The notes beneath the pieces were generated by a model. The model searched no databases. It was not told the DNA's origin and saw only the letters and a program-made list of their open reading frames with translations. A program made the position numbers and the translations under genes. A stretch of DNA of 38,052 nucleotides from Gemmatimonadota bacterium (lineage in GTDB: Bacteria > Gemmatimonadota > Gemmatimonadetes > Gemmatimonadales > Gemmatimonadaceae). The stretch covers positions 1-38,052 of the forward strand of contig JANMLN010000112.1 of the NCBI GenBank assembly GCA_031372565.1, given 5' to 3'. This document shows, piece by piece, positions 17,370 to 28,983 of the stretch; within the stretch, counting starts at the first letter, position 1, and every line of letters starts with the position of its first letter.

Positions 17370-17942
17370 CTACCGCACCGCGTTCCACATCGCGACCGTC
17401 TGCGGGAAGAGCGCCTTCCCCTCCCGCAGCGTCCACTCGAACCGGTGGCGCACCACTTGCCGGAAGACACCGTGGAAGTCCAGTACCACATGCTGCGCGA
17501 GAAAGCCGCGATCAGCGACAGCAAACGGACGCCCCGGTTCGAGATAGTCCGCCATGTATAGCGCCTGACCTGTCCGGCCCCATGTGCCAGAGCCGGTGGT
17601 ATGCCAGCGAATCGCATCAAGCACGTCGCCACGCAGCTCGCCCTGCTGCGCCAGCCGATTGGCGGCGGCGGGCCCGTGCAGCGTACCGAAGGGACTCTCC
17701 ATGTCGCCGGTCGCGGCTCGCAGCGTTGGCTCATCACAGTCCCGCAGGGCGTCGTGCCATCGCCCTGCATCGTGCCATGCCTGGCGTTCCGCGTCACCCA
17801 GGCGCAGTGCACCGGCCCACAGGTCGAGCAACTGCGTGACGCGCTCGATGTGCGCGCGCCGCTTGGACGAGACCACGGCCCAGTCGGGTAGCACCACGGG
17901 CGGCGCTGGAGGTCCCGACTCCGGCAGCGGCATTCCCGTCAC
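17370..17942 (-). CDS. yqeK: YqeK-like HD-domain hydrolase (putative Ap4A symmetrical hydrolase)
   Basis: [38 protein letters not shown] follow the YqeK motif order. Confidence 0.78.
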
Positions 17943-20023
17943 TGCGCCTCCGTGATGCGCCGCGCAAGATCCTCGAGCGTGTGCGCCACCTCGCGCAACT
18001 CCTGCGTCGCGCCCTCCATCTCGCGCATCGCCTGCGCCTGCGCGCGGGCACCCTCGGTCACCGACTCCGCACTATCCTGATTGCGGCGGGAGATCTCGGT
18101 GATGCGCGCGACCCGGTCGCGCAGTCGCCCGAACTGTTCCTCCTGATCCCGCGACGTGACCGCGATGCGCTGCACCCCCTCGGCGCTCGACCCCGTGGCC
18201 TCCAGGATGCCCTGCAGGGCGGTTTGGGCTGATGCGGCCAGCGACTCGACGTCGCGCACCATGACCTCCCCGCGCTCCATCTGCCGTGCCACGAGCCGCG
18301 TCTGCTCGCTGAAGCCGTACACCAACTCGCCGACCTCCGCCGTCGTCTTCGCGCTGGCGGCTGCGAGCTTGCGGACCTCGTCGGCCACGACGGCGAAGCC
18401 CTGCCCTTCCGCCCCCGCGCGTGCGGCCTCGATCGCGGCGTTGAGCGCCAACAGGTTGGTCTGGTCCGCGAGTTCGCGGATGTCGCCGATGAAGTCGGTC
18501 ACGCGCTGCGTGCTCTTGGTCAGCTCGTGCACGTGCGTGGCGCTCTCCGAGATGAACCCCTTGGCGCCGACCAGCCGCTCGAGGGCCACGCCGATCGTGT
18601 CGCGATGCTCGAGGGCCGACTCGCGCGCGCGCACGGCCGCGCCCGCGGCAAAGCTGCCTTCGCGCACCACCTGATCGGTCGCATGGGCCATGTCACGCGT
18701 GACGTCGAGGGCAGAGAGCAACTGCTCCCCTTCCTCGCCGATCGCGCGCGTGATCTCACCCACGGTGCGTGCCACCGCCTCGCCGCCGGAGCGCAGCTGC
18801 CGGGCCGAGTCCGCGAGCGTCGTGATCTGCTTGCCCAATCGCACCACCGCGTCCAGCAGCGGCTGGCGCAGATCGTGGATGTGGAGCGTGGTGGCCAGCT
18901 GCGTGCTGAAGCGCCGCACGAGGTCCAGCTCCTTGTCGCGATACATCGACGGCTTCACGTGCTCGATCTCGAGCAGGCCCACGTTGCGGTCGCCGAAGCG
19001 GAGCGCGGCAAAGGCCATCGAGCGCACGTCGTCCGAGCGGCCGCGCACGCGAGGATCGCGCCGGGCGTCGTTCACGGCAATCGGCGCGGCCGATTCGAGC
19101 GCCTGACGGCGGAGTTCGCGCCCTGCCTCCGGTTCGGCAAAGGCGACGCTCACACTCTGGCCGCCGCCCTCGTACAAGAGCGTCAGTTGGTCCCCCGTCA
19201 CGCGCCAGATGCGCAGCGACGTCCAGTCGACCAGGCGGCGTGCCAGTCCCTCGATCCGGCCGAACGCCTCCTCGAGCGTCGCATCGGACGCGACGACGAG
19301 CTCCATCGCGAGGATCTTGTTCAGTTCTTCCGCCGCGATCGATTCTTCGAGAATGCGCTTGAGCAGCAGCCCGGAGAAGCCGAGGACCAGCGATGCGACG
19401 AGCGCGCCCACCCATCCGACCGACTGGATCGCGACGAGGGCAATCGTGACGGCGGCCGTGCCGGCGCCAAACGTGATGACCTCGTAGCGCAGGATGAGCG
19501 AGCGCTCCTCCGGGTAGAGCTTGTCGCGTGCGATCAGCGTGAAGTACAGCAGGCCGCGGCTGAGCAGGAAATGCGTGAAGGTGAGCAGCGCGAACCCCGG
19601 CAGCGTGTCGGCGGACAATCCGCTGAAGCGTGCCGTACCGGTGGCCGCGGCCGACGCCGCATAGAAGCCGAACGACGCCATGAGCGCCACGACCTCGCGA
19701 CCGGCATTGATGAACGACGGCCGCGTCGGCTTGCCGAGCACGAACCGATCCGCGACGAGCACTCCGGCATACAGCGCGAGCGCCGTCCCGGCCGCCCCGA
19801 GCACGAACGTGCCGCCGACGGCCACCATCGAGAGCAGGTTGAGCGCCGAGTACTTGGTCGTGGGAATCTGGAAGGCGCGCAGCGCGGCCGTCGCGATGAA
19901 GAGCAGCAGGACGCCGTATCCGGCTTCGAGGCTCCAGTGCGAGGACGTGAGCACGGCGCCCACGAGCAGCAGCATGCCGCCGATCGTGACCGAGCTCGGA
20001 TACCAGGCGAGGAGCCGGCCCAC
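17939..20023 (-). CDS. Methyl-accepting chemotaxis protein with multi-TM sensor and GAF domain
   Basis: About 220 aa of hydrophobic helices, a GAF region (VNDARRDPR...RSMAFAAL...VGLLEI...ATTL), and the MA signature [31 protein letters not shown]. Confidence 0.9.
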
Positions 20024-20025
20024 GC

Positions 20026-20826
20026 CTAACCCTCGTCCAGCGCCAGGCGCAACGAGCGAACGAGTGCGATGGCCTCGTCCACGGAGCGGCCGGCGGCGGC
20101 CACGAGCGCCGAGCCGACGACGACGCCATCGGCGAGACGCCCCACGTCGCGCGCCTGTGCCGGCGTCGAGATGCCGAAGCCGACACAGACCGGCAGCGTC
20201 GTCGCGGCCTTGAGGCGGTCGACGGTCGCGGGAAGGTCGCGGGAGACCGTCGCGCTCGCGCCGGTCACGCCCAACCGGCTGATGAGGTACACGAAGCCGC
20301 GGCCGTGTCGACCGATCACCGCCATCCGGTCGCTCGGTGTCGTGGGTGCCACGAGCCGGACGAACGCGAGCGGACCGTCTCCGATCCAGCGTTCGCGCTC
20401 GGGATCGGCACCCACCGGCAGGTCGGTGAGCAGGAGGCCACTGATGCCGGACCGCGCCGCGCGGACGAGGACGTCGGGGCCCGCCGCGATCAGCGGGTTG
20501 AGATAGGTGAAGAGCACGAGCGGCACGTCCACGCGCGCGTCGCGGGCCAGCGCGAGCGTGCCGTCGAGCGTCATGCCCTGGTCCAGGGCGCGCTGCGAAC
20601 TCGCCTGGATGACGGGACCGTCCGCCAGCGGGTCGGAGAACGGCACGCCCAGCTCGATCACGTCGGCCCCGGCCGCCGCCACGCCGCGCACGAGCGCCAG
20701 CGACGTCGCGGGGTCGGGATACCCGGCTGTGAGGTAGCAGACGAGGGCGCGGCGGTGCTGGCGGCGGAGCGCGTCGAAGCGCGCGGTCAGGGCATCAGCG
20801 GAAATAATCACCGATGCGGATGCCAT
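20026..20826 (-). CDS. trpA: Tryptophan synthase alpha chain
   Basis: [49 protein letters not shown]. Start uncertain; it overlaps the upstream gene by 32 bp. Confidence 0.95.
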
Positions 20827-22324
20827 AGCGCTCCGGATTCTCCGTCTTGATGATCGTGCGTGGGAAGGTGCCGTCGGGGGACTGCTCGGCGAGCGAGACC
20901 TCGAGGCCGGGATAGAGCACGTTACCCTGGGCGTCGCTCACGATGAGGACCGATGGTCGCGATGCCATGTCGGGTGCCGGGTCGGCGGCCTGCACAATGG
21001 CCATTTCGAACGTGTCGAGCATGACGAGCGTGCCCACCGGGTAGATGCCGAGCATGGCGACGAACGCCTTGACCAGCGTGGGGTCCATGCCTCGCCGCGG
21101 ATTGTCCCGCATCTCCTGCAGCACGATGGCGGGGGCCACCGGATTGGCATACGCGCGCTGCGTCGTCGCGGCGTCGAAGCCGTCGGCGATCGCCACGATC
21201 TTGCTGAAGATCGACAGCTCGCGTGGCCGCAGGGCGCGCGGGTAGCCCGTCTGGTCGAAACGCATGTGATGCTCGTATGCCACCACCATCGACCGGTAGG
21301 GCATGTCGGTGATGTTCTTGAACTGCAGCAACGAGAGGAGCCCGCGCCAGGTGTGCGTCGTGAGCAGGCGCCACTCCTCCTCGGAGAGCTGCTCCGACTT
21401 GTTGAGCACATCGAGCGGAATGCGCGCCTTCCCGATGTCGTGGAAGAGCGCGGCCATCCCCAGGTCGTACAGCTGCAACTTGTCGAGCAGCAGCCGGCGG
21501 CCAAGCGCCACCGAGAAGATGCAGACGTTGAGCGAGTGCACGAAGGTGTACTCGTCATAGTCGCGAATCGTCGTGAGCCCGACGAGCGACGTTTCGTCGG
21601 CCAGGATCTGGTCGACAATCGTCTGCACGACGCGCTTGACGCGCTTGAGTCCCGAGGCGCGCCCCATGCGCACCGAATTGACCACGTCCTTGGTCACCGC
21701 GATGCCCTGCGCGTACACGCGCTTGGCCGCCTCCTTGGTCTGCGCCTTGCTGCGACGCTCGTCGCCCGACTCGGACGGCGCCCCCAGGTGGAAGGTGCCC
21801 ACTCCGGCGTCGCTCAGTCGCACCAGCAGCCACTCGAGCCGCTCGTCCGGCACGCGCGGACCCTGTCCGTCGAGCTGCAGCGACGACAACAGGACGATGT
21901 AGTCGCGCGGCAGCGGTGGTGCCTCGAGGTGCAACTCGCCGACGCCGCAGGCGCGCAGCTTGTCGCTCACCCCCTTGAACGCCGCAAAGTTGTCGGCCTC
22001 GAGCCGCAGCTGCGATCCGTTCATGAAGAGCGCATCGCCCGAGAGGCGCAGATCGAGCTCCTGCGCGACCCGCAGGATCTCCGACGTGACGTTCACGAGG
22101 TCGAGCACGGCCTTCTGCACGGCGGCATTCTCGACCGGATACAGCTTGACCGCCCGCATGGCGCCAAAGAACGCCAGCACGTACAGCCGTCCGAGCCGCT
22201 TGAGGTCGCTTCCGTCGGGTGCGTCCTGAATGGCCGAGAGGAGCTGCGACATGCGCGGACCCGCCGGTGCCTCGAGCGCGCGCTGGGCCTGCGTCGGCCG
22301 AGGTGGGGGCGAGGATTCGCTCAT
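20795..22324 (-). CDS. HD-GYP domain phosphohydrolase (putative cyclic dinucleotide phosphodiesterase) with unnamed N-terminal domain
   Basis: YTFVHSLNV, FHDIGK, EHHMRFDQTGYP, IVAIADGFDA, GIYPVGTLV tail. ATG 22324 overlaps the HEAT gene stop. Confidence 0.9.
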   Translation of the reverse strand: MSESSPPPRPTQAQRALEAPAGPRMSQLLSAIQDAPDGSDLKRLGRLYVLAFFGAMRAVKLYPVENAAVQKAVLDLVNVTSEILRVAQELDLRLSGDALFMNGSQLRLEADNFAAFKGVSDKLRACGVGELHLEAPPLPRDYIVLLSSLQLDGQGPRVPDERLEWLLVRLSDAGVGTFHLGAPSESGDERRSKAQTKEAAKRVYAQGIAVTKDVVNSVRMGRASGLKRVKRVVQTIVDQILADETSLVGLTTIRDYDEYTFVHSLNVCIFSVALGRRLLLDKLQLYDLGMAALFHDIGKARIPLDVLNKSEQLSEEEWRLLTTHTWRGLLSLLQFKNITDMPYRSMVVAYEHHMRFDQTGYPRALRPRELSIFSKIVAIADGFDAATTQRAYANPVAPAIVLQEMRDNPRRGMDPTLVKAFVAMLGIYPVGTLVMLDTFEMAIVQAADPAPDMASRPSVLIVSDAQGNVLYPGLEVSLAEQSPDGTFPRTIIKTENPERYGIRIGDYFR

Positions 22325-24117
22325 CGCGTCGGGTCTCCCCGCAATGCGCGATTGACCGCCGTCCGCACGACGACGTCCTTCTCGTCCACTGCCTTGCGCA
22401 GCGCCTCTTGCGCCTTGGGCGTCCCGGCGCGGCCGAGCCCGGCGGCGGCACAGACGCGCACCTCGGCGTCCTCGCGGCGGCCAAGGAACCCTTTGCTGTT
22501 CAGCAGACCGTCGAGCACCGGCACGGCCTGTTCGCCCCCCGTTGCACCGTAGGCCTCGAAGATGGCCATCATCTCGGTCTTGTCGCGGTCGCGGAGCTCC
22601 TTGCCCTTCACGATGCTGTCGAGTCGCGCGAATGCCGTGCGGTACTTGGCCGCCGTCACTGCGCGCGCGGCCCCCACGCGAACATCGCGATCGGTATCGG
22701 TCAGGGCGCGCTCCAGCAGCTGCATCGCGCCCGCCGACCCGATCTCGGCCAGCGCCAGCACGCAGGCCGCGCGCGTGTCGGCCGTCCCCTCGCTCAGCAG
22801 CTTGCCCATGGGCGCCACGGCCGCCGCGGTCTTGAGCGCGCCCGAGCGACGGATGGCCTCCATGGCCACGACAGGATCGGCGCTGCCGATGAGCCGCACG
22901 AGCTCGATCGTGTTCGTGCGCGCGATCCGGTCGGCGGCGGCCTCGAGCATCGTCTTGAGCGACGCCTGCTCGAGCTTGTGCAGCCACGCGAGCACGGTGC
23001 CCAGCGCGGTCACGCGCAACTGATCGAACAGCGCGAGGATCTCATCCTGCGCCGGCAGCTGATGGGCGAGATCGAGCCCTTGCAGCACCTGCGCGAGGGC
23101 GGCGGGTTCGCTCAGCCGGTCGGACAACCGGGTGAGGCGATCGCGGTGCTGCGGCAGGAGGACGGGCGCTCGGCCGGCCGCCACGGCGGACTCGTGCAGC
23201 AGGTAGGCGACGGCCTTGAGATCGCCCACGGTGAGGAGCGTCAGCACGAACTGCTCGAGCAGCTCGCACACCTCGTCGCGCACCTCGGGCTCGAGCTGCA
23301 ACTCGAACGTGTCCAGCAGCATCGTGATCACCGTTGCGCGATGATCACCCGCGTACTCGTGCGCGAAGGCACGTCGCAGGGTCTCGAGTTCGGTGTCGTC
23401 GAGGAAATAGAGCGAGCTGTCGAAGTCGGCGAGGTTGACCACGCCGCTCTTCCGTTCTTCCTCGCTGTCGCCGTCGCCGCCGCCGCCGCCAGCGGCCGTC
23501 CCGGTCCCACCTCCGGTCCCGGTGCCTTCGCCCTCGTCGTCCCCTGCACCGCCGCCGGCCGCACGCGCACGGCGGCCGTTCACGTCGTCGCTCCACCGCG
23601 CGGGCGGTCCCATCTGGTCGTCGAACGCCGGGCCGTCACCACCGATCTCGACGTAGCGATACTTGAGGTATCCGAACGCGGACTGCCAGAGCAGCGTCAA
23701 CAAGTCGTCGTCATCGGGACCGCCGCGACGAACCCGGGGGAGCAGTTCGATGACCTTGACCCACTCCTCGACCTCGACCCCGCGCACGAGCGTCAGGGCC
23801 CGCACGCCATCCTTGTAAAACAGCCACGCGAGCGAGTCGTTGCCCTTGCCCTCATCGGCATACACGACGTGCGGTCCGTAGCGGATCTCCGTCTCGCTGA
23901 TCGCGAGCGTGACGTCATCCGCATGCGCCCAGACCGCCGTGAACGCACCCTGCACGACCTCGACCGCCTTGAGCCAGGTCGGGTTGTTGCCGGGGTAGAG
24001 CTGGCGCGCGCGCAGCGCCTTGGTGGTACTGCGCAGCAGCTCTTCGAGTGCCGCCGGCGGCACGCGTCCGTCGAAATCATCGTCCACGGCAGGCATCGAC
24101 GTGGAGGGGTGCGTCAC
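22321..24117 (-). CDS. HEAT-repeat protein with unnamed N-terminal domain and Gly/Asp/Glu-rich linker
   Basis: Repeats such as [57 protein letters not shown] overlaps the trpB stop. Confidence 0.85.
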
Positions 24118-25322
24118 GGCGTGAAGCCCTCGAGCGCGTTCATCTGCGCAACGTCCTTGTCGCCCCGTCCGCTCACGCAGAGCAGCACCACATCGTCTGC
24201 AGACCAGCGACCCGCGGACCGGGACAACCAGGCCACGGCGTGCGCCGTTTCAAGCGCCGGAATGATCCCCTCGAGGCGCGACAGGATCCGGACGCCCTCG
24301 AGTGCCTCGGTGTCGTCCACCGCCGCGTACTCCGCGCGCCCCGACGTCTTGAGCCACGCGTGCTCCGGGCCGACGCCGGGATAATCGAGCCCGGCCGAAA
24401 TCGAGTGCGCCGGGTGCACCTGCCCCGCCGCGTCCTGCAGCAGCAGCGAGAGCGCGCCATGCAGCACGCCGGGGGTTCCGGCCGCCAGCGTCGCGCTGTG
24501 CATGCCGGTGGCGATCCCCTCCCCAGCGGCCTCGACGCCCACCAGTTCGACCCCGGCATCACCGACGAACGGATGAAAGATCCCCATCGCATTCGAGCCG
24601 CCACCGACGCAGGCGATCACCGTACGCGGCAGCCGGCCCGTGCGGGCAAGTACCTGGGCGCGCGCCTCGTCGCCGATGACGCGCTGGAAGTCGCGCACCA
24701 TGCGCGGGTACGGTGCCGGCCCGACCACTGATCCGATGATGTAGTGCGTGCCCTCGACGTTGGTGACCCAGTCGCGGATCGCCTCCGTGGTGGCGTCCTT
24801 GAGCGTCCGTGTGCCGGTCGTGACGGGTACGACCGTGGCGCCGAGCAATTGCATCCGGAAGACATTGAGCGCCTGCCGGCGCATGTCTTCCTCGCCCATG
24901 TACACCACGCACTCCAGCCCGAACTTTGCGCAGATCGTGGCCGTCGCGACGCCGTGCTGGCCGGCGCCGGTTTCGGCGATGATCCGGCGCTTGCCCATGC
25001 GCCTGGCCAGCAGCGCCTGTCCGATCGTGTTGTTGATCTTGTGCGCACCGGTGTGGTTCAGGTCTTCGCGCTTGAGCACCACGCGCGCACCGACCTGCAC
25101 GGAGAGCCTCGGCGCATCGGTGAGGGCACTCGGGCGTCCCACGAAATCGCGCAGCAACCCGTCGAGCTCCGCACGATAGACCGGATCAGCCATCGCCGTC
25201 GCGTACGCGGCTTCGAGCTCATCGAGCGCGGGAATCAGCGTCTCGGGGACATACCGCCCACCGAACGGGCCGAATCGACCGGAGTCGACGGAGATCGAAG
25301 AGTCGGGCAGCACTGCAGTCAT
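24114..25322 (-). CDS. trpB: Tryptophan synthase beta chain
   Basis: [26 protein letters not shown] (PLP Lys), [34 protein letters not shown]. Confidence 0.97.
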
Positions 25323-25975
25323 GTGCTGAACTTCGGGATCGGGGAAGCAACGGCCAAGGCAAAGCGTCGCATCTTCGCGGGTGACTTGAGGGCGGGCGCA
25401 TCCTCGACCCCCGACGAGACATCCACCACGTCGGGGCCGAGCACGCGCACCGCCTCCGAAATATTGTCTGCGGTGAGGCCGCCAGCCAGCACAATCGGTG
25501 TGCGGGCTCGAGCGGTGGCCAACAGCGGCGCGTGGCGCTCCCAATCGAACGCGTGGCCCGACCCACCCAGCCCACCGGGCACGAGGGTATCGACCACCAC
25601 GGCGTCCGCCGCAGCGAACAGTGCGCACAGCGTTTCAGCGTGCGGAGTTGTTCCAAGGCGCGCCACGGCCCAGACGCCACCGTCCCAGAGAGTGCGCAGC
25701 TCGGCGAGCTCTGCCGGTGTGGGATCTGCGTGCACCTGCAGGATGTCTGCACCGACCGCTCGGCCCAATGCCGCCATCTGGGCCGCCGCCGTCCGCGGCA
25801 CCACGGCCACTCGGCGCGGGCCCGTGGCCGCCTGCAGCACCTCCTGCGCGACCGTCGGCGTCAGCAGCCGCGGACCGCCCACCAGAATCACCCCGACGTA
25901 GCTGGCGCCAAGTGCACTCGCCAGCTCGGCGTCCACCGGGCGCGTGAGCCCACAGAACTTGACCTCAGGTGGCAC
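25319..25975 (-). CDS. trpF: Phosphoribosylanthranilate isomerase
   Basis: [36 protein letters not shown]; sits between trpC and trpB. Confidence 0.92.
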
Positions 25976-26795
25976 GGCCCTGCCGGGCGACCCCGGTGAG
26001 GGCGCGGACGGCGATGGTCGGTTCTGCGGCGGCTGAGATACTGCTGCCGACCAGGACCGCGTCTGCTCCCCGCGCGGCCGCCGCCTCCACCTGGGCGTGC
26101 TCGGCGATGCCACTCTCATGAATCGCGATCCGATCCGCTGGAATCAACGGGAGGAGCCGCTCGGCTGTGGAAGGCGTTACCACGAGCGTTTCCAGGTTGC
26201 GGTTGTTGACCCCGATCATCGGCGCGGCCGCAGCGGAGAGCGCCACGGCGCGGGCCAGCTCCTCCTCATCGCGAATTTCCACGATGACATCGAGGCCCCA
26301 CTGATACGCCTCGCCCGCGAGGTCCTCGAGGCGGGATGGTTCCAGCGCCCGGGCAATCAGCAGGAGCGCACTTGCACCGATCGCCCGCGCTTCGAGCACC
26401 TGAATGGCGTCGACGTGGAAGTCCTTCTTGAGGGTCGGCAAGTCGACCCGTCGGCGAATATCGACGAGGTCCTGCACCGAGCCCTTGAAGGCGTCGGGTT
26501 CGGTCAGGACCGAGAGCGCCACGGCACCGCCATCGGCGAAGGCACCGGCGAGGGCCACGGCGCTCACCCCGGGGTTGATCGGCCCCTTGGAGGGCGAGGC
26601 ACGCTTGACCTCGGCGATGACCGCGACGAAGTGGCCCGCCAACGCTGCCGCGAAGGGACGCCCTGCCGGGGTATCGGCGGCCAGCGCCTTGAGGTCGGCG
26701 CGACGCCGTTCGAGGTGTTCGGCCCGCTGACGAGCCTCGTCCACCAATTTGCCAAGAGTCCCGCTCGGGGGACGCCATACGCGGGGAGCTTGCAC
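25965..26795 (-). CDS. trpC: Indole-3-glycerol phosphate synthase
   Basis: IAEVKRASPSKG, SVLTEP..F.GS, LKKDF, IGVNNRNL, HESGI, LVGS. Start GTG 26795 is inferred. Confidence 0.93.
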   Translation of the reverse strand: MQAPRVWRPPSGTLGKLVDEARQRAEHLERRRADLKALAADTPAGRPFAAALAGHFVAVIAEVKRASPSKGPINPGVSAVALAGAFADGGAVALSVLTEPDAFKGSVQDLVDIRRRVDLPTLKKDFHVDAIQVLEARAIGASALLLIARALEPSRLEDLAGEAYQWGLDVIVEIRDEEELARAVALSAAAAPMIGVNNRNLETLVVTPSTAERLLPLIPADRIAIHESGIAEHAQVEAAAARGADAVLVGSSISAAAEPTIAVRALTGVARQGRAT

Positions 26796-26867
26796 TTCGG
26801 GGTTCGTTCGGTTACTGTGGGGAAGATTCGGGAAACGTTCGGGAGCACCGAATCGTCTTGGTAACGT
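26795..26867 (+). promoter_or_regulatory. Candidate LexA operators (two TTCGG-N6-TTCGG direct repeats) and extended -10 of lexA
   Basis: TTCGG at 26796/26807 and 26827/26838 (11-bp period in both pairs), an inverted CCGAA at 26848, and TGgTAACGT at 26859-26867. Confidence 0.55.
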
Positions 26868-26894
26868 ACGCATCCGCCACCTCAGGGGCCACCC

Positions 26895-27503
26895 ATGCCG
26901 CTTACCCGGCGCCAGCGCGAGATCCTCGACTATCTCAACGACTACTCCGCCGAGCGGGGGTACGCCCCCAGCTTCGATGAGATTGCCGAGAAGTTCGATT
27001 ACGCGTCCCTTGCGACGGTGCACGAGCACCTGAGCAATCTGGAGCGGAAGGGGTACATCAAGCGCAGCTACAACGAGAGCCGCGCCATCGAGATCTTGCC
27101 GTCCGATGTCTTCCCGAAGGCGGTGGAACTCCCGCTGCTCGGATCGGTGGCGGCGGGCTTGCCGCTGGAGTCGCAGACGACAGGTGAGACGGTGAGTGTG
27201 CCGGACTCCTTCGTGCGGCGCACCGGCAACCACTACGTCCTCAAGGTCCGCGGCCAGTCGATGATCGACGCGCAGATCGCCGATGGTGACTTCGTCGTTG
27301 TTCAGGACAAGCCGAGCGCCGATAACGGCGAAATGGTGATCGCCATGATGGCGGACTCGACCGCCACCGTGAAGCGTTACTATAGAGAGCGTGATGGTCG
27401 GATTCGCCTGCAGCCCGCGAACGACAGTATGCAGCCGATCTATGTCAACGAGAACGAGATCTCCGTCCGGGGCGTCGTCGTTGGGGTTCTGCGTCGCTAC
27501 TAG
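26895..27503 (+). CDS. lexA: SOS repressor LexA
   Basis: LTRRQREIL..GYAPSFDEIA wHTH, VAAG cleavage site, VRGQSM catalytic Ser, ATVKR catalytic Lys. Confidence 0.96.
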   Translation: MPLTRRQREILDYLNDYSAERGYAPSFDEIAEKFDYASLATVHEHLSNLERKGYIKRSYNESRAIEILPSDVFPKAVELPLLGSVAAGLPLESQTTGETVSVPDSFVRRTGNHYVLKVRGQSMIDAQIADGDFVVVQDKPSADNGEMVIAMMADSTATVKRYYRERDGRIRLQPANDSMQPIYVNENEISVRGVVVGVLRRY

Positions 27504-27511
27504 GGGGAGAT

Positions 27512-27874
27512 ATGCTCGGCGTTCGCACTGTTGTGTACCCCGCCCCGGATCTCGCCAAGGGCAAGGCGTTCTACGCGGCCGTTCTGGGACATGCGCCCTA
27601 CTTCGACGAGCCGTTCTATGTGGGGTTCGAGGCGTTCGGGTTCGAACTGGGCCTCGTGCCCGACGCGGTGCCGGGCAGCTCGGGCGCGTGCGCCTACTGG
27701 GGCGTTGACGACATCGTCGCCGAGCATGCCCGACTCCTGAGCGTGGGCGCGCGCCCGCACGAGGCGATCACCGAGGTGGGCGACGGGATCACGACGGCCT
27801 CGGTGGTCGACCCCTTTGGCAATGTCTTCGGCATCATCTGCAACCCACACTTCAAGCTCGACCGCGTGCGGTAG
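27512..27874 (+). CDS. VOC/glyoxalase family protein
   Basis: VYPAPDLAKGKAFY..VLG, YWGVDDI, DPFGNVFGI; GGGGAG RBS. Confidence 0.88.
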   Translation: MLGVRTVVYPAPDLAKGKAFYAAVLGHAPYFDEPFYVGFEAFGFELGLVPDAVPGSSGACAYWGVDDIVAEHARLLSVGARPHEAITEVGDGITTASVVDPFGNVFGIICNPHFKLDRVR

Positions 27875-27899
27875 CCGCAGCGGGCCCGGCACGAACGGA

Positions 27900-27931
27900 A
27901 CGGGGAGCATGCGACGCGGCATGCTCCCCGT
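27900..27931. terminator. Hairpin between convergent genes (possible bidirectional terminator)
   Basis: ACGGGGAGCATGC-gacgcg-GCATGCTCCCCGT, a perfect 13-bp stem with no clear U-tract. Confidence 0.6.
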
Positions 27932-27957
27932 GTGCGTTCATCGCCCACCGATGGCCG

Positions 27958-28983
27958 TCAGGCGGTCGCTGCCCGAAGCCGCCCGAGCACTGCCAGCGCG
28001 GCCCCATCGTCGATCGACCGGTTGGCGAGGGACACGCCGTGCGCAAAGTCCTTGGCCAGCGCTCCCACGTACAACGCTGCCGCCGCGTTGAGCACCACGG
28101 CGGCCCGGGCCCCGCGCGGGCCACCGCCGCCAAGGACCTCGACGATCACGCGCGCATTGTCCGCGGGTTCGCCGCCGACCAGGTCATCCGCCTTGGTCCC
28201 GCCGAAGCCGAAGGCGGTCGGGTCGATCGTCCAGTTCCGACGTCGTCCCTTCACAATCTCGATGACCTTGGTGGGGCCAAGTGGCGATACCTCATCGAGT
28301 CCCGGCTCCCCGTGCACCACAACCGCATGCACGCTGCCGAGCGAGAGCAGCGCCCCGGCGATGAGCGGCATGCGGGCGGCGTCCGCGACGCCGATCACCT
28401 GCCGCCCTGCGCCGGCCGGGTTGGCCAGCGGGCCCACGATATTCATGACCGTCGGTATTCCCAGTTCGCGACGCACCGGACCCACGTGTCGCATGGCCGG
28501 ATGCATGAGCGGGGCGAACATGAAGACGATGCCGGCATCGCGGAGCGACCTCGACATCGTGTCGGCATCCACGTCGATCCGCACGCCAAGCGCCTCCAGC
28601 ACGTCGGCGCTGCCCGAGCGCGACGTGAACGATCGGTTCCCATGCTTGGCGATGCGGGCGCCGGCCCCCGCAGCCACGAGCGCGGCGGCCGTGGAAATGT
28701 TGAAGGTCGTCACGGTGCCGCCACCCGTGCCGCACGTGTCGATCAGTGTCGATGGATCGGGTGCCGGGAGGCGAACCATCGCGTTGCGGAGCGCGCGCGC
28801 GGCCCCGGCGACTTCGTCGGGCGTCTCGCCCTTGACCCGAAGCGCGGTCAAGAGCGACGCCACCTGGACGACGGTCGCGTCGCCGCGCATCACGTCGCCG
28901 AACGCCGCGGTGGCCTCATCCGCGAGCAACTGTCCGCCGTGCGCGAGCTTCTTGATGGCCGCGCTGATCGCGTCAGCGGGCAC
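27958..28983 (-). CDS. trpD: Anthranilate phosphoribosyltransferase
   Basis: KGET, DTCGTGG, FNIST, AKHGNRSFTSRSGSADVLE, GPLANP, GLDE, LNAA. Confidence 0.96.
   Translation of the reverse strand: MPADAISAAIKKLAHGGQLLADEATAAFGDVMRGDATVVQVASLLTALRVKGETPDEVAGAARALRNAMVRLPAPDPSTLIDTCGTGGGTVTTFNISTAAALVAAGAGARIAKHGNRSFTSRSGSADVLEALGVRIDVDADTMSRSLRDAGIVFMFAPLMHPAMRHVGPVRRELGIPTVMNIVGPLANPAGAGRQVIGVADAARMPLIAGALLSLGSVHAVVVHGEPGLDEVSPLGPTKVIEIVKGRRRNWTIDPTAFGFGGTKADDLVGGEPADNARVIVEVLGGGGPRGARAAVVLNAAAALYVGALAKDFAHGVSLANRSIDDGAALAVLGRLRAATA

Follow-up and report, generated by a model that had tools for sequence, protein, structure and literature searches.

A HEAT-repeat protein and an HD-GYP protein encoded by overlapping genes share an uncatalogued N-terminal domain

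Less is understood about HD-GYP enzymes than about the other class of c-di-GMP phosphodiesterases. PmGH serves as the structural reference for c-di-GMP hydrolysis, and the N-terminal domains of other HD-GYP families are thought to promote enzyme dimers. According to excerpts of the Galperin and Chou preprint (10.1101/2021.11.05.467447), many HD-GYP proteins carry unrecognised N-terminal domains; the same excerpts describe DUF3391, the N-terminal domain of the Bd1817 family, as having four strands and, after them, two long helices. Here we define one formerly unrecognised HD-GYP N-terminal domain, which likewise stands at the start of a separate HEAT-repeat protein, the product of the gene immediately upstream. 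In the literature searched, we found no description of such a HEAT and HD-GYP pair.

The pair lies in a window of 38,052 nucleotides of contig JANMLN010000112.1 from a Gemmatimonadota bacterium, in the following setting:

20026..20826, minus strand: trpA, directly downstream of the HD-GYP gene, its first ATG 32 nt inside the HD-GYP gene end
20795..22324, minus strand: HD-GYP phosphodiesterase gene, 509 aa, ATG start
22321..22324, minus strand: ATGA overlap of the HEAT stop and HD-GYP start codons, translational coupling
22321..24117, minus strand: HEAT-repeat protein gene, 598 aa, GTG start overlapping the trpB stop (GTGA)
24114..25322, minus strand: trpB, directly upstream of the HEAT gene, start read from the ORF translation, overlapping the trpF stop

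The coordinates and the coupling of the HEAT and HD-GYP genes are as the initial annotation had claimed, the ATGA overlap being present in the sequence. The place of the pair inside the trp operon, flanked by trpB and trpA, was absent from that annotation. Every junction of the trpB-HEAT-HD-GYP-trpA block in the window is an overlap. As neighbouring frames overlap and leave no intergenic space, we infer that the cassette is co-transcribed with trpB and trpA in Gemmatimonadota. This arrangement is an unusual operon architecture of itself, and no description of an HD-GYP gene between trpB and trpA was found in the literature searched.

The HEAT and HD-GYP proteins have homologous N-terminal domains of about 140 aa each, delimited by hhalign and AlphaFold2:

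23650..24060, minus strand: shared N-terminal domain, HEAT copy, aa ~20-156, with R36, L40, Y41, N45, A51 and G104
21782..22222, minus strand: shared N-terminal domain, HD-GYP copy, aa ~35-181, with R57, L61, Y62, N66, A72 and G127

A segment of 19 residues had initially been reported as identical at ten positions between the two proteins, and a direct count bears this out (10/19). Pairwise BLASTP of the two N-termini yielded 13/41 identities at E=0.005, which is merely suggestive. Profile-profile comparison by hhalign gave a probability of 92.9% and E=3.8e-7 over 103 columns for 119 versus 120 homologues. With broader alignments (47 versus 21 sequences), these values improved to 96.8% and E=2.8e-10 over 143 columns, and the latter alignment matches up exactly the segments listed in the initial annotation. 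As controls, a reversed alignment reached E=0.37 and the best of 20 column shuffles E=0.0025. The homology was replicated in an independent set of pairs from low-G+C contigs (E=7.7e-15). Together with the same predicted topology of both copies, these data confirm the proposed shared domain, while its proposed size of ~120 aa has to be corrected to about 135-145 aa. Inside the genome, HMM-versus-sequence scores of E=0.1 and 6.6 are marginal. When the genome's 39,432 six-frame ORFs were searched, the HD-GYP N-domain profile ranked the HEAT protein second after the HD-GYP protein itself (E=0.1), and no further copy of the N-domain was found.

AlphaFold2 models of the two N-domains (pLDDT 87.4, pTM 0.78 and pLDDT 88.2, pTM 0.81) follow one order of elements, namely two long helices, a three-strand β-meander, a helix, a strand, two helices and a strand. 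The third meander strand of the HD-GYP copy is only a 2-residue bridge. The VIA tables of the two models have 14 entries in common among the best 50 of each, with an identical top entry. Conservation falls on the same few residues of each copy, which form an R-x3-L-Y-x3-N pattern at the turn between helix 1 and helix 2 plus one Gly. The initial annotation could not assign the domain to a named family, and our searches agree: neither copy matched Pfam at E≤10, none was found in NCBIfam, and searches of both against PDB sequence profiles returned chance-level matches only. Foldseek gave best E-values of 0.63 and 0.17 and no convincing structural match, and the best VIA-align hits (Z 6.0 and 5.7) cover 64-65 residues of the helical hairpin only. 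The nearest clusters in the ESM Atlas, which we regard as leads only, are unnamed (scores 0.92, 0.90 and 0.89, and at most 0.78), Thermodesulfobacteriota and Gemmatimonadota being their commonest taxa. DUF3391 was considered and rejected as the shared domain. PF11871 scores 12.6 bits, below its cut-off of 27.8, and covers the linker only (model positions 92-131), a DUF3391 cluster in the ESM Atlas scores 0.75, under any useful level, and the Bd1817 structure 3TM8 is absent among the structure matches listed for either model. The shared N-domain is an uncatalogued α/β domain with the signature R-x3-L-Y-x3-N ... G.

Beyond the N-domain, the HEAT protein comprises three regions:

23443..23625, minus strand: Gly/Asp/Glu-rich low-complexity linker, aa ~165-225, weakly conserved among relatives
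23398..23427, minus strand: motif DFDxSLYFLD, aa 231-240, strongly conserved in 119 homologues
22339..22896, minus strand: C-terminal HEAT repeats of PBS-lyase / alphaRep type, aa 408-593, PF13646 at 9.1e-16

The AlphaFold2 model drops to a pLDDT of ~50 from aa 161. The DFDxSLYFLD motif marks the start of a helical middle region (aa ~226-405); its L236 is conserved at 90% or more and its L239 is invariant. No Pfam family matches before aa 408. The repeats score above the gathering threshold of HEAT_2 (PF13646; 58.4 bits versus 27.7, aa 408-590), reaching 63.6 bits when the C-terminal part is searched alone, and their PDB profile matches are alphaRep proteins, deoxyhypusine hydroxylase, CpcE and MTH187. 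Two full-length NCBIfam equivalogs were rejected, the NblB-type HEAT protein (35.2 bits, cut-off 300) and the CpcE phycobilisome lyase (13.5 bits, cut-off 330). The notion that the middle region is a decayed HD domain was likewise dropped, as the full-length HEAT and HD-GYP profiles align in their N-termini only.

The linkage of the two genes is conserved. In 30/30 Gemmatimonadota loci the gene directly upstream of the HD-GYP gene is the HEAT gene, and the same holds for 20/20 loci that cover nine family labels of this phylum and for 65/65 judgeable loci from named MAGs, these three sets overlapping. Of 20 related loci, 15 have a junction between -14 and +1 nt. Among 21 judgeable loci on metagenome contigs with 32-53% G+C, 16 encode both N-domains in tandem, three the upstream N-domain only and two neither; here HEAT_2 exceeds its cut-off in 10/12 upstream proteins and HD_5 is present in 10/10 downstream proteins. 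A locus search with the HD-GYP alignment returned best 80 loci that are nearly all labelled Gemmatimonadota, three being labelled only 'bacterium'. The most divergent HEAT N-domain retrieved 15 matches as a query; Pfam recognises a HEAT domain in 13, and the two that bear a name come from Gemmatimonadota. Searching protein cluster representatives with the HD-GYP N-domain profile yielded 1,524 clusters at E≤0.001, of which the best 150 are mostly fragments. A tree of the N-domains, which contains several long branches, parts HEAT-type from HD-GYP-type copies with moderate support (86/71), and the same two subclades recur in each half (100/98 and 99/99; 94/84 and 95/88). The split by protein type and the mirrored halves fit one old duplication followed by joint inheritance. 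Joint inheritance of the pair extends over bacteria from 32% to 70% G+C.

Because very different bacteria inherit both genes together, the HEAT and HD-GYP proteins probably form a two-protein signalling unit. Our best explanation of the whole, which we advance tentatively and with nearly even confidence, is a self-contained two-gene signalling cassette in which an apparently active HD-GYP enzyme and a HEAT regulatory or targeting subunit are paired through their N-domains. Following a single old duplication, the two N-domain copies would have been inherited jointly ever since and, as we infer, would pair with each other. In such a pair the HEAT protein would serve a binuclear phosphodiesterase as a stoichiometric subunit that regulates or targets it, and the overlapping stop and start codons might keep the amounts of both proteins in balance. 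Physical contact is poorly predicted by gene adjacency or translational coupling. A wider version is possible and more doubtful: a class of two-subunit cyclic-dinucleotide phosphodiesterases in which the HEAT-borne paralogous domain would pair with the input domain of the enzyme, gating or targeting it, and which would be wired into the Gemmatimonadota trp operon so that messenger turnover follows the expression of amino-acid biosynthetic genes.

The shared domain might instead bind the same small molecule in each protein separately, with the enzyme responding in its activity, the HEAT solenoid in how tightly it holds other partners, and no mutual contact. We consider such parallel sensing rather unlikely. 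The common conserved residues cluster at the helix 1/2 turn and one Gly and could line a pocket; residues identical in both copies are as compatible with a shared ligand pocket as with an interface. The two copies have also stayed distinct since the old duplication, and excerpts of the Galperin and Chou preprint present HD-GYP N-terminal domains generally as sensors. Against this, no ligand is suggested by any Pfam, PDB-sequence or structure match, and strict adjacency with overlapping codons exceeds the needs of two independent sensors. The data fit docking and a shared sensor equally well, and docking is favoured. Ligand binding and pairing by the same N-domain are compatible with each other.

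Downstream of its N-domain, the HD-GYP protein is organised as follows:

21560..21772, minus strand: linker into the catalytic domain, aa ~185-255, predicted helix aa 187-199 (AlphaFold2 model to aa 200)
21035..21556, minus strand: HD-GYP catalytic domain, aa 257-430, PF13487 at 1.5e-20
20798..21034, minus strand: conserved C-terminal tail, aa 431-509, no Pfam match at E≤10

Pfam recognises only HD_5 and HD in this protein and nothing at E≤10 within aa 1-195. The catalytic residues are H263, H295-D296, K299, H324, H352-H353, D357, G360-Y361-P362, D381, D384 and R390-A-Y392-A393. H263, H295, D296, H324, H352, H353, D381 and the GYP are kept in 120/120 homologues; in PDB alignments, the metal ligands correspond to H189, H221, D222, H250, H276, H277 and D305 of PmGH. 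The canonical motif given in excerpts of the Galperin and Chou preprint is HHExh[D/N]GxGYP. The loop here reads EHHMRFDQTGYP. It retains HH, D and GYP and has Met for Glu (HHM for HHE, 120/120 homologues) and Leu or Gln for Gly (111/120). The motifs, initially described as intact, are so for HD, HH, GYP and the Asp ligands, and altered in HHM, the replaced Gly and RxYA in place of RxxK. Tyr259 occupies the position of PmGH Glu185, with Tyr in 120/120 homologues and no acidic residue, which places the protein in the binuclear subgroup as defined in those excerpts (10.1101/2021.11.05.467447). The enzyme is apparently active and would most probably cut a cyclic dinucleotide open, giving the linear dinucleotide.

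Hydrolysis of cyclic dinucleotides had been assumed from the HD-GYP class, and the substrate now needs refining. The specificity motif of the window's protein is RxYA (R390-A-Y392-A393), a version of the guanine-recognition motif RxY[K/R] that lacks Lys/Arg. At the fourth residue, 120 homologues have Q (106), A (10) or another residue (2), the motif not being found in 2; RxYA is carried by the window's protein and its nearest clade. The Wright et al. preprint (10.1101/600031) gives Rxx(Q/N) as the signature of cGAMP-selective HD-GYP enzymes, a signature absent from the window's protein (Ala) and present as RxYQ in 106/120 relatives. In line with a signalling cassette, the genome also codes for GGDEF cyclases whose GG[DE]EF motifs are intact; the four intact domains all have the canonical Asp (GH..GD), and no cGAMP (Hypr-type) signature occurs among them. 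This Asp is a mark of c-di-GMP rather than cGAMP synthases.

The altered loop could mean that the HD-GYP protein is a receptor or adaptor whose HHM / D[L/Q]xGYP sequence lowers catalysis, so that the pair would be a cyclic-dinucleotide-binding complex. The consistency of both replacements speaks for this, as do the inactive HD-GYP proteins acting by protein contacts that a published passage on RpfG, HnoD and ECA3548 describes. The inactive examples in that passage, however, lost HD or HH residues, and the retention of the metal ligands and GYP in all 120 homologues points to selection for metal binding and catalysis. We therefore regard a non-enzymatic role as improbable.

The trp setting raises the question of whether the pair serves tryptophan synthesis, sensing indole or tryptophan or regulating the TrpA-TrpB complex. 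Such a role would explain its position between trpB and trpA, found in 15/20 Gemmatimonadota loci, with trpB upstream in 57/58 and trpA downstream in 65/66 judgeable named MAG loci, and would agree with the overlaps at all junctions in the window. Yet in 5/20 Gemmatimonadota loci the pair is retained although trpB and trpA do not flank it, no trp gene lies within 4.5 kb in any of 43 low-G+C contigs bearing the enzyme motif of the cassette, and the enzyme is an ordinary HD-GYP of the cyclic-dinucleotide type. Lying between trpB and trpA is a trait specific to the Gemmatimonadota lineage, and a dedicated tryptophan role appears highly improbable. That the N-termini resemble each other by chance or composition in mere neighbours is scarcely credible: pairwise BLASTP and the in-genome scores are weak by themselves, but two independent profile-profile data sets lie far beyond the best control and the predicted topologies agree.

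If the complex of HEAT and HD-GYP proteins forms, it would represent accessory-subunit control, which is not described for HD-GYP enzymes in the portions of the literature consulted. In this family, moreover, HHM forms an unusual active-site loop and the specificity motif is non-canonical, making its substrate a testable question.

How does the pair relate to known systems? The HEAT protein shares its repeat type, within the C-terminal 190 aa, with PBS-lyase HEAT-like and alphaRep proteins (MTH187, 1TE4; CpcE/F, 5N3U; NblB; designed alphaReps), which lack its N-terminal domain, the DFDxSLYFLD region and the link to an HD-GYP gene. Among HD-GYP proteins, both the RpfG family, with REC-HD-GYP, and the PmGH family, with GAF-HD-GYP, were rejected as homes for the enzyme, REC and GAF both being absent. 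The Bd1817 family (DUF3391-HD-GYP; Bd1817, 3TM8; PA4108; VC2497), as described in excerpts of the Galperin and Chou preprint, resembles it in that the HD-GYP domain is preceded by a long connecting helix and a cytoplasmic domain of about 120-140 aa that is uncharacterised, and the catalytic domain finds 3TM8 as a distant match by sequence (4.3e-6). Unlike DUF3391 in that published description, the shared domain opens with two long helices and has its strands after them. The excerpts mention no paralogous partner protein, and 'HEAT' occurs 0 times in the main text. PmGH (4MCW/4MDZ) matches the catalytic domain at 5.6e-19, with His, Asp, Lys and GYP aligning one to one; it differs in Glu185, a third-metal ligand that is Tyr here, in HHE versus HHM, KPG versus KSE and RxYK versus RxYA, and in its GAF input domain. 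The best sequence match of solved structure is V-cGAP3 of Vibrio cholerae (5Z7C; 9.6e-22), a 3',3'-cGAMP phosphodiesterase that also has Tyr at the Glu185 position. It matches the HD-GYP protein twice, weakly with chain residues 26-79 and strongly with 291-459, but keeps RxYR and has neither the shared N-domain nor a HEAT partner. Finally, the cGAMP-selective Rx(x)Q/N enzymes PmxA, Bd2325 and Gmet_3476 (10.1101/600031), of which PmxA is a Cache-TM-HAMP-HD-GYP membrane protein, differ from the window's own RxYA protein and resemble most of its closest homologues in their specificity motif.

The HEAT-repeat and HD-GYP genes are embedded in a tryptophan operon, with trpD, a divergent lexA, trpC, trpF and trpB on one side and trpA on the other. 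On the minus strand, trpD, trpC, trpF, trpB, HEAT, HD-GYP and trpA form a chain of overlapping or abutting frames (20026-28983). Named homologues place the organism in the Gemmatimonadota, and the G+C content of the window is 64-71%. The features are as follows:

26895-27503, plus strand: lexA, divergent, between trpD and trpC
22321-24117, minus strand: HEAT-repeat gene, 598 aa; its GTG start overlaps the trpB stop; HEAT repeats at aa 408-590 (Pfam PF13646, 9.1e-16), confined to the last 190 residues
23443-23625, minus strand: HEAT-protein linker of 60 residues, rich in Gly/Asp/Glu, between the N-terminal domain and a DFDxSLYFLD motif
20795-22324, minus strand: HD-GYP gene, 509 aa; its ATG overlaps the HEAT stop as ATGA; HD-GYP-type domain at aa 257-430 (Pfam PF13487, 1.5e-20)
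17939-20023, minus strand: membrane protein of 694 aa (GAF-MCP), hydrophobic in its N-terminal half and carrying GAF and MCP signalling domains, directly after trpA
17370-17942, minus strand: ORF of 190 aa following the GAF-MCP gene, conserved nearby in many relatives; no Pfam match at E≤1e-4

Judging from the overlapping codons, the HEAT and HD-GYP proteins are translated together. The HEAT-protein linker varies among relatives, and the DFDxSLYFLD motif is nearly invariant.

Direct counting confirmed ten identities in the 19-residue strings from which the initial annotation had deduced a common N-terminal domain (N-domain), and BLASTP of the two N-termini returned 13/41 identities (E=0.005). 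Profiles of 119 HEAT-type and 120 HD-GYP-type homologues, trimmed to their N-termini, aligned over 103 columns (Prob 92.9%, E=3.8e-7). Broader alignments drawn from loci across the phylum (47 HEAT and 21 HD-GYP copies) matched over 143 columns (Prob 96.8%, E=2.8e-10) and paired the same segments that had been listed at the outset. As controls, a reversed alignment gave E=0.37 and the best of 20 column-shuffled alignments E=0.0025; with full-length profiles, the alignment was confined to the N-termini. Among 39,432 six-frame ORFs of the organism's own genome, the HD-GYP N-domain profile ranked its own protein first and the HEAT protein second (E=0.1), and no third copy of the N-domain was found. 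At the sequence level, the family profiles thus settle that the common domain is real; its proposed size of ~120 aa did not hold, as it spans about 135-145 residues.

AlphaFold2 predicted both N-domains with confidence (pLDDT 87.4, pTM 0.78 for HEAT; 88.2 and 0.81 for HD-GYP). The element order is the same in both models, i.e., two long helices, a three-strand β-meander, a helix, a strand, two helices and a strand, with the third meander strand being a mere two-residue bridge in the HD-GYP model. Six positions are conserved in both copies as judged from a merged alignment (R36/R57, L40/L61, Y41/Y62, N45/N66, A51/A72 and G104/G127). In line with the earlier failure to assign a named family, neither N-terminus matched Pfam even at E≤10, NCBIfam matched the HEAT and HD parts only, and sequence-profile searches of the PDB with both N-domains returned chance-level rows. 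Foldseek against the PDB yielded nothing at E≤0.001 (best E 0.63 and 0.17 for the two models). VIA-align against 48,161 representative chains reached top Z-scores of 6.0 and 5.7 over 64-65 residues of a helical hairpin, below the background that the tool gives for models of this kind. The two VIA tables had the same top entry and 14 entries in common, which fits two models of one shape.

The HEAT N-domain is present in 300/401 sampled genomes of the phylum, a tally that counts the genome of this window plus four unpublished ones (G157, G182, G057 and G097). Two or three matches occur in some Gemmatimonadota genomes (G224, G295, G051, G085 and others), with an internal TAG in one of the G085 copies. 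An HD-GYP N-domain begins just after the HEAT gene in all 30 best loci. The conserved linkage expected by the initial annotation was borne out in 20 larger loci picked to cover nine family labels: the HEAT-then-HD-GYP order is kept in 20/20, and 15 of them have the pair flanked by trpB and trpA. The exceptions to this flanking are L032, L034, L035, L043 and L044, in three of which lexA still adjoins upstream. The HEAT/HD-GYP junction measures -14 to +1 nt in 15/20 loci by a crude first-start-codon rule, which made no call in the other five, where the upstream frame is open. The HD-GYP protein retrieved 80 named MAG loci; all 65 that had enough flank carry a HEAT N-domain gene immediately upstream, and trpB precedes the pair in 57/58 and trpA follows it in 65/66. 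These sets of 30, 20 and 80 loci overlap and contain close kin, so that their counts are not independent. The phylum repeatedly shows the order trpD, lexA, trpC, trpB, pair, trpA. The GAF-MCP gene holds the same place in 10/20 of the diverse set and in the majority of the 80 MAG loci, and its product may belong with the signalling pair.

Because HHM replaces the family HHE in all 120 close HD-GYP homologues, metagenome contigs were scanned for EHHMKxD..GYP, written in A/T-biased codons to avoid high-G+C Gemmatimonadota. This gave 117 stretches, of which 80 were retrieved; 43 had a G+C content below 0.56 (range 0.26-0.53). With at least 3.3 kb of upstream sequence at hand for 21 low-G+C loci, tandem N-domains in the HD-GYP gene and the gene upstream were found in 16, an upstream N-domain only in three (E≤0.01) and no N-domain in two. 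None of the 43 had a trp gene within 4.5 kb. The 37 higher-G+C loci showed tandem N-domains in 18/18 and trpA or trpB nearby in 31/37. In 12 low-G+C loci, the upstream protein carried HEAT_2 above the cut-off in ten, at 27.1 bits in one and not at all in one; the downstream protein carried HD_5 in 10/10 tested. As an independent set, the low-G+C N-domains are homologous to each other (E=7.7e-15), and both match the Gemmatimonadota profiles (4.7e-24 to 7.9e-11). They carry YPxxHP in place of the Gemmatimonadota LYPxxN.

In a maximum-likelihood tree of 64 N-domains, of which Gemmatimonadota supplied 21+21 and the low-G+C contigs 12+10, the HEAT-type and HD-GYP-type copies form separate halves (support 86/71); support for this central branch is only moderate, and some branches are long. 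Each half contains one subclade of L136, L158, L168, L198, L205 and L211 (94/84 and 95/88) and another uniting the Gemmatimonadota with L155, L170, L183 and L190 (100/98 and 99/99). These mirrored subclades fit a single duplication before these lineages diverged, after which the two copies were passed on together. The low-G+C cassettes also fall into two size classes that correspond to the two subclades: 690-740 aa plus 365-385 aa (L136, L146, L158, L168, L198, L205, L208 and L211, the last departing with 557 aa and a 292-aa ORF), and 550-560 aa plus 390-480 aa (L155, L170, L183 and L190).

By sequence, the best solved relatives of the enzyme are V-cGAP3 (5Z7C, 9.6e-22), PmGH (4MCW, 5.6e-19) and PA4781 (4R8Z), with Bd1817 (3TM8) more distant. 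Residues were mapped onto the GAF-HD-GYP protein PmGH using the roles set out in the Galperin and Chou preprint (10.1101/2021.11.05.467447). Of the HD-GYP motifs, described earlier as intact, the His/Asp ligands, Lys299 and GYP all occur in the protein and are kept by 120/120 homologues, with HHM standing where the family has HHE. The position of the third-metal ligand Glu185 is Tyr in 120/120, which places the family in the binuclear group. According to the same preprint, closely related Tyr enzymes are, with exceptions, unable to take pGpG to GMP. The organism's genome holds seven GGDEF matches (contigs C30, C149, C58, C106, C110, C131 and C196). In four of them GG[DE]EF is intact and the GH..GD residue canonical; the motif is missing from the C110 copy, and the one on C196 seems degenerate. 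With four intact GGDEF domains, the organism probably makes c-di-GMP.

Taken together, our sequence comparisons show an active-looking HD-GYP protein that has an old paralogous domain in common with a HEAT solenoid, the two being inherited as a pair. We tentatively propose that the two N-domains pair with each other, which would make the HEAT protein a subunit with a regulatory or targeting role. The main alternative is a sensor function, with the N-domain of each protein binding the same ligand and no contact between the two; we consider this less likely, and it is compatible with pairing. We regard a function in tryptophan synthesis as unlikely, since the pair is also kept where trp neighbours are absent.

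In the literature searched, we found no description of a HEAT plus HD-GYP pair, including in Gemmatimonadetes and in the trpB/trpA setting; the word HEAT is absent from the main text of the Galperin and Chou preprint, whose supplements may list unassigned architectures. DUF3391, the N-terminal domain of the Bd1817 family, was rejected as the identity of the N-domain: in a family search of the organism's genome it scored 12.6 bits, the cut-off being 27.8, and its alignment falls on the HD-GYP linker (aa ~185-224, model positions 92-131), off the shared domain. That preprint gives DUF3391 as four strands and then two long helices, an element order that differs from that of the N-domain. The enzyme also departs from the guanine-recognition motif RxY[K/R], reading RxYA in the window (10/120 homologues) and RxYQ in 106/120 relatives; Rxx(Q/N) is given as the signature of cGAMP-selective HD-GYP enzymes in the Wright et al. 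preprint (10.1101/600031).
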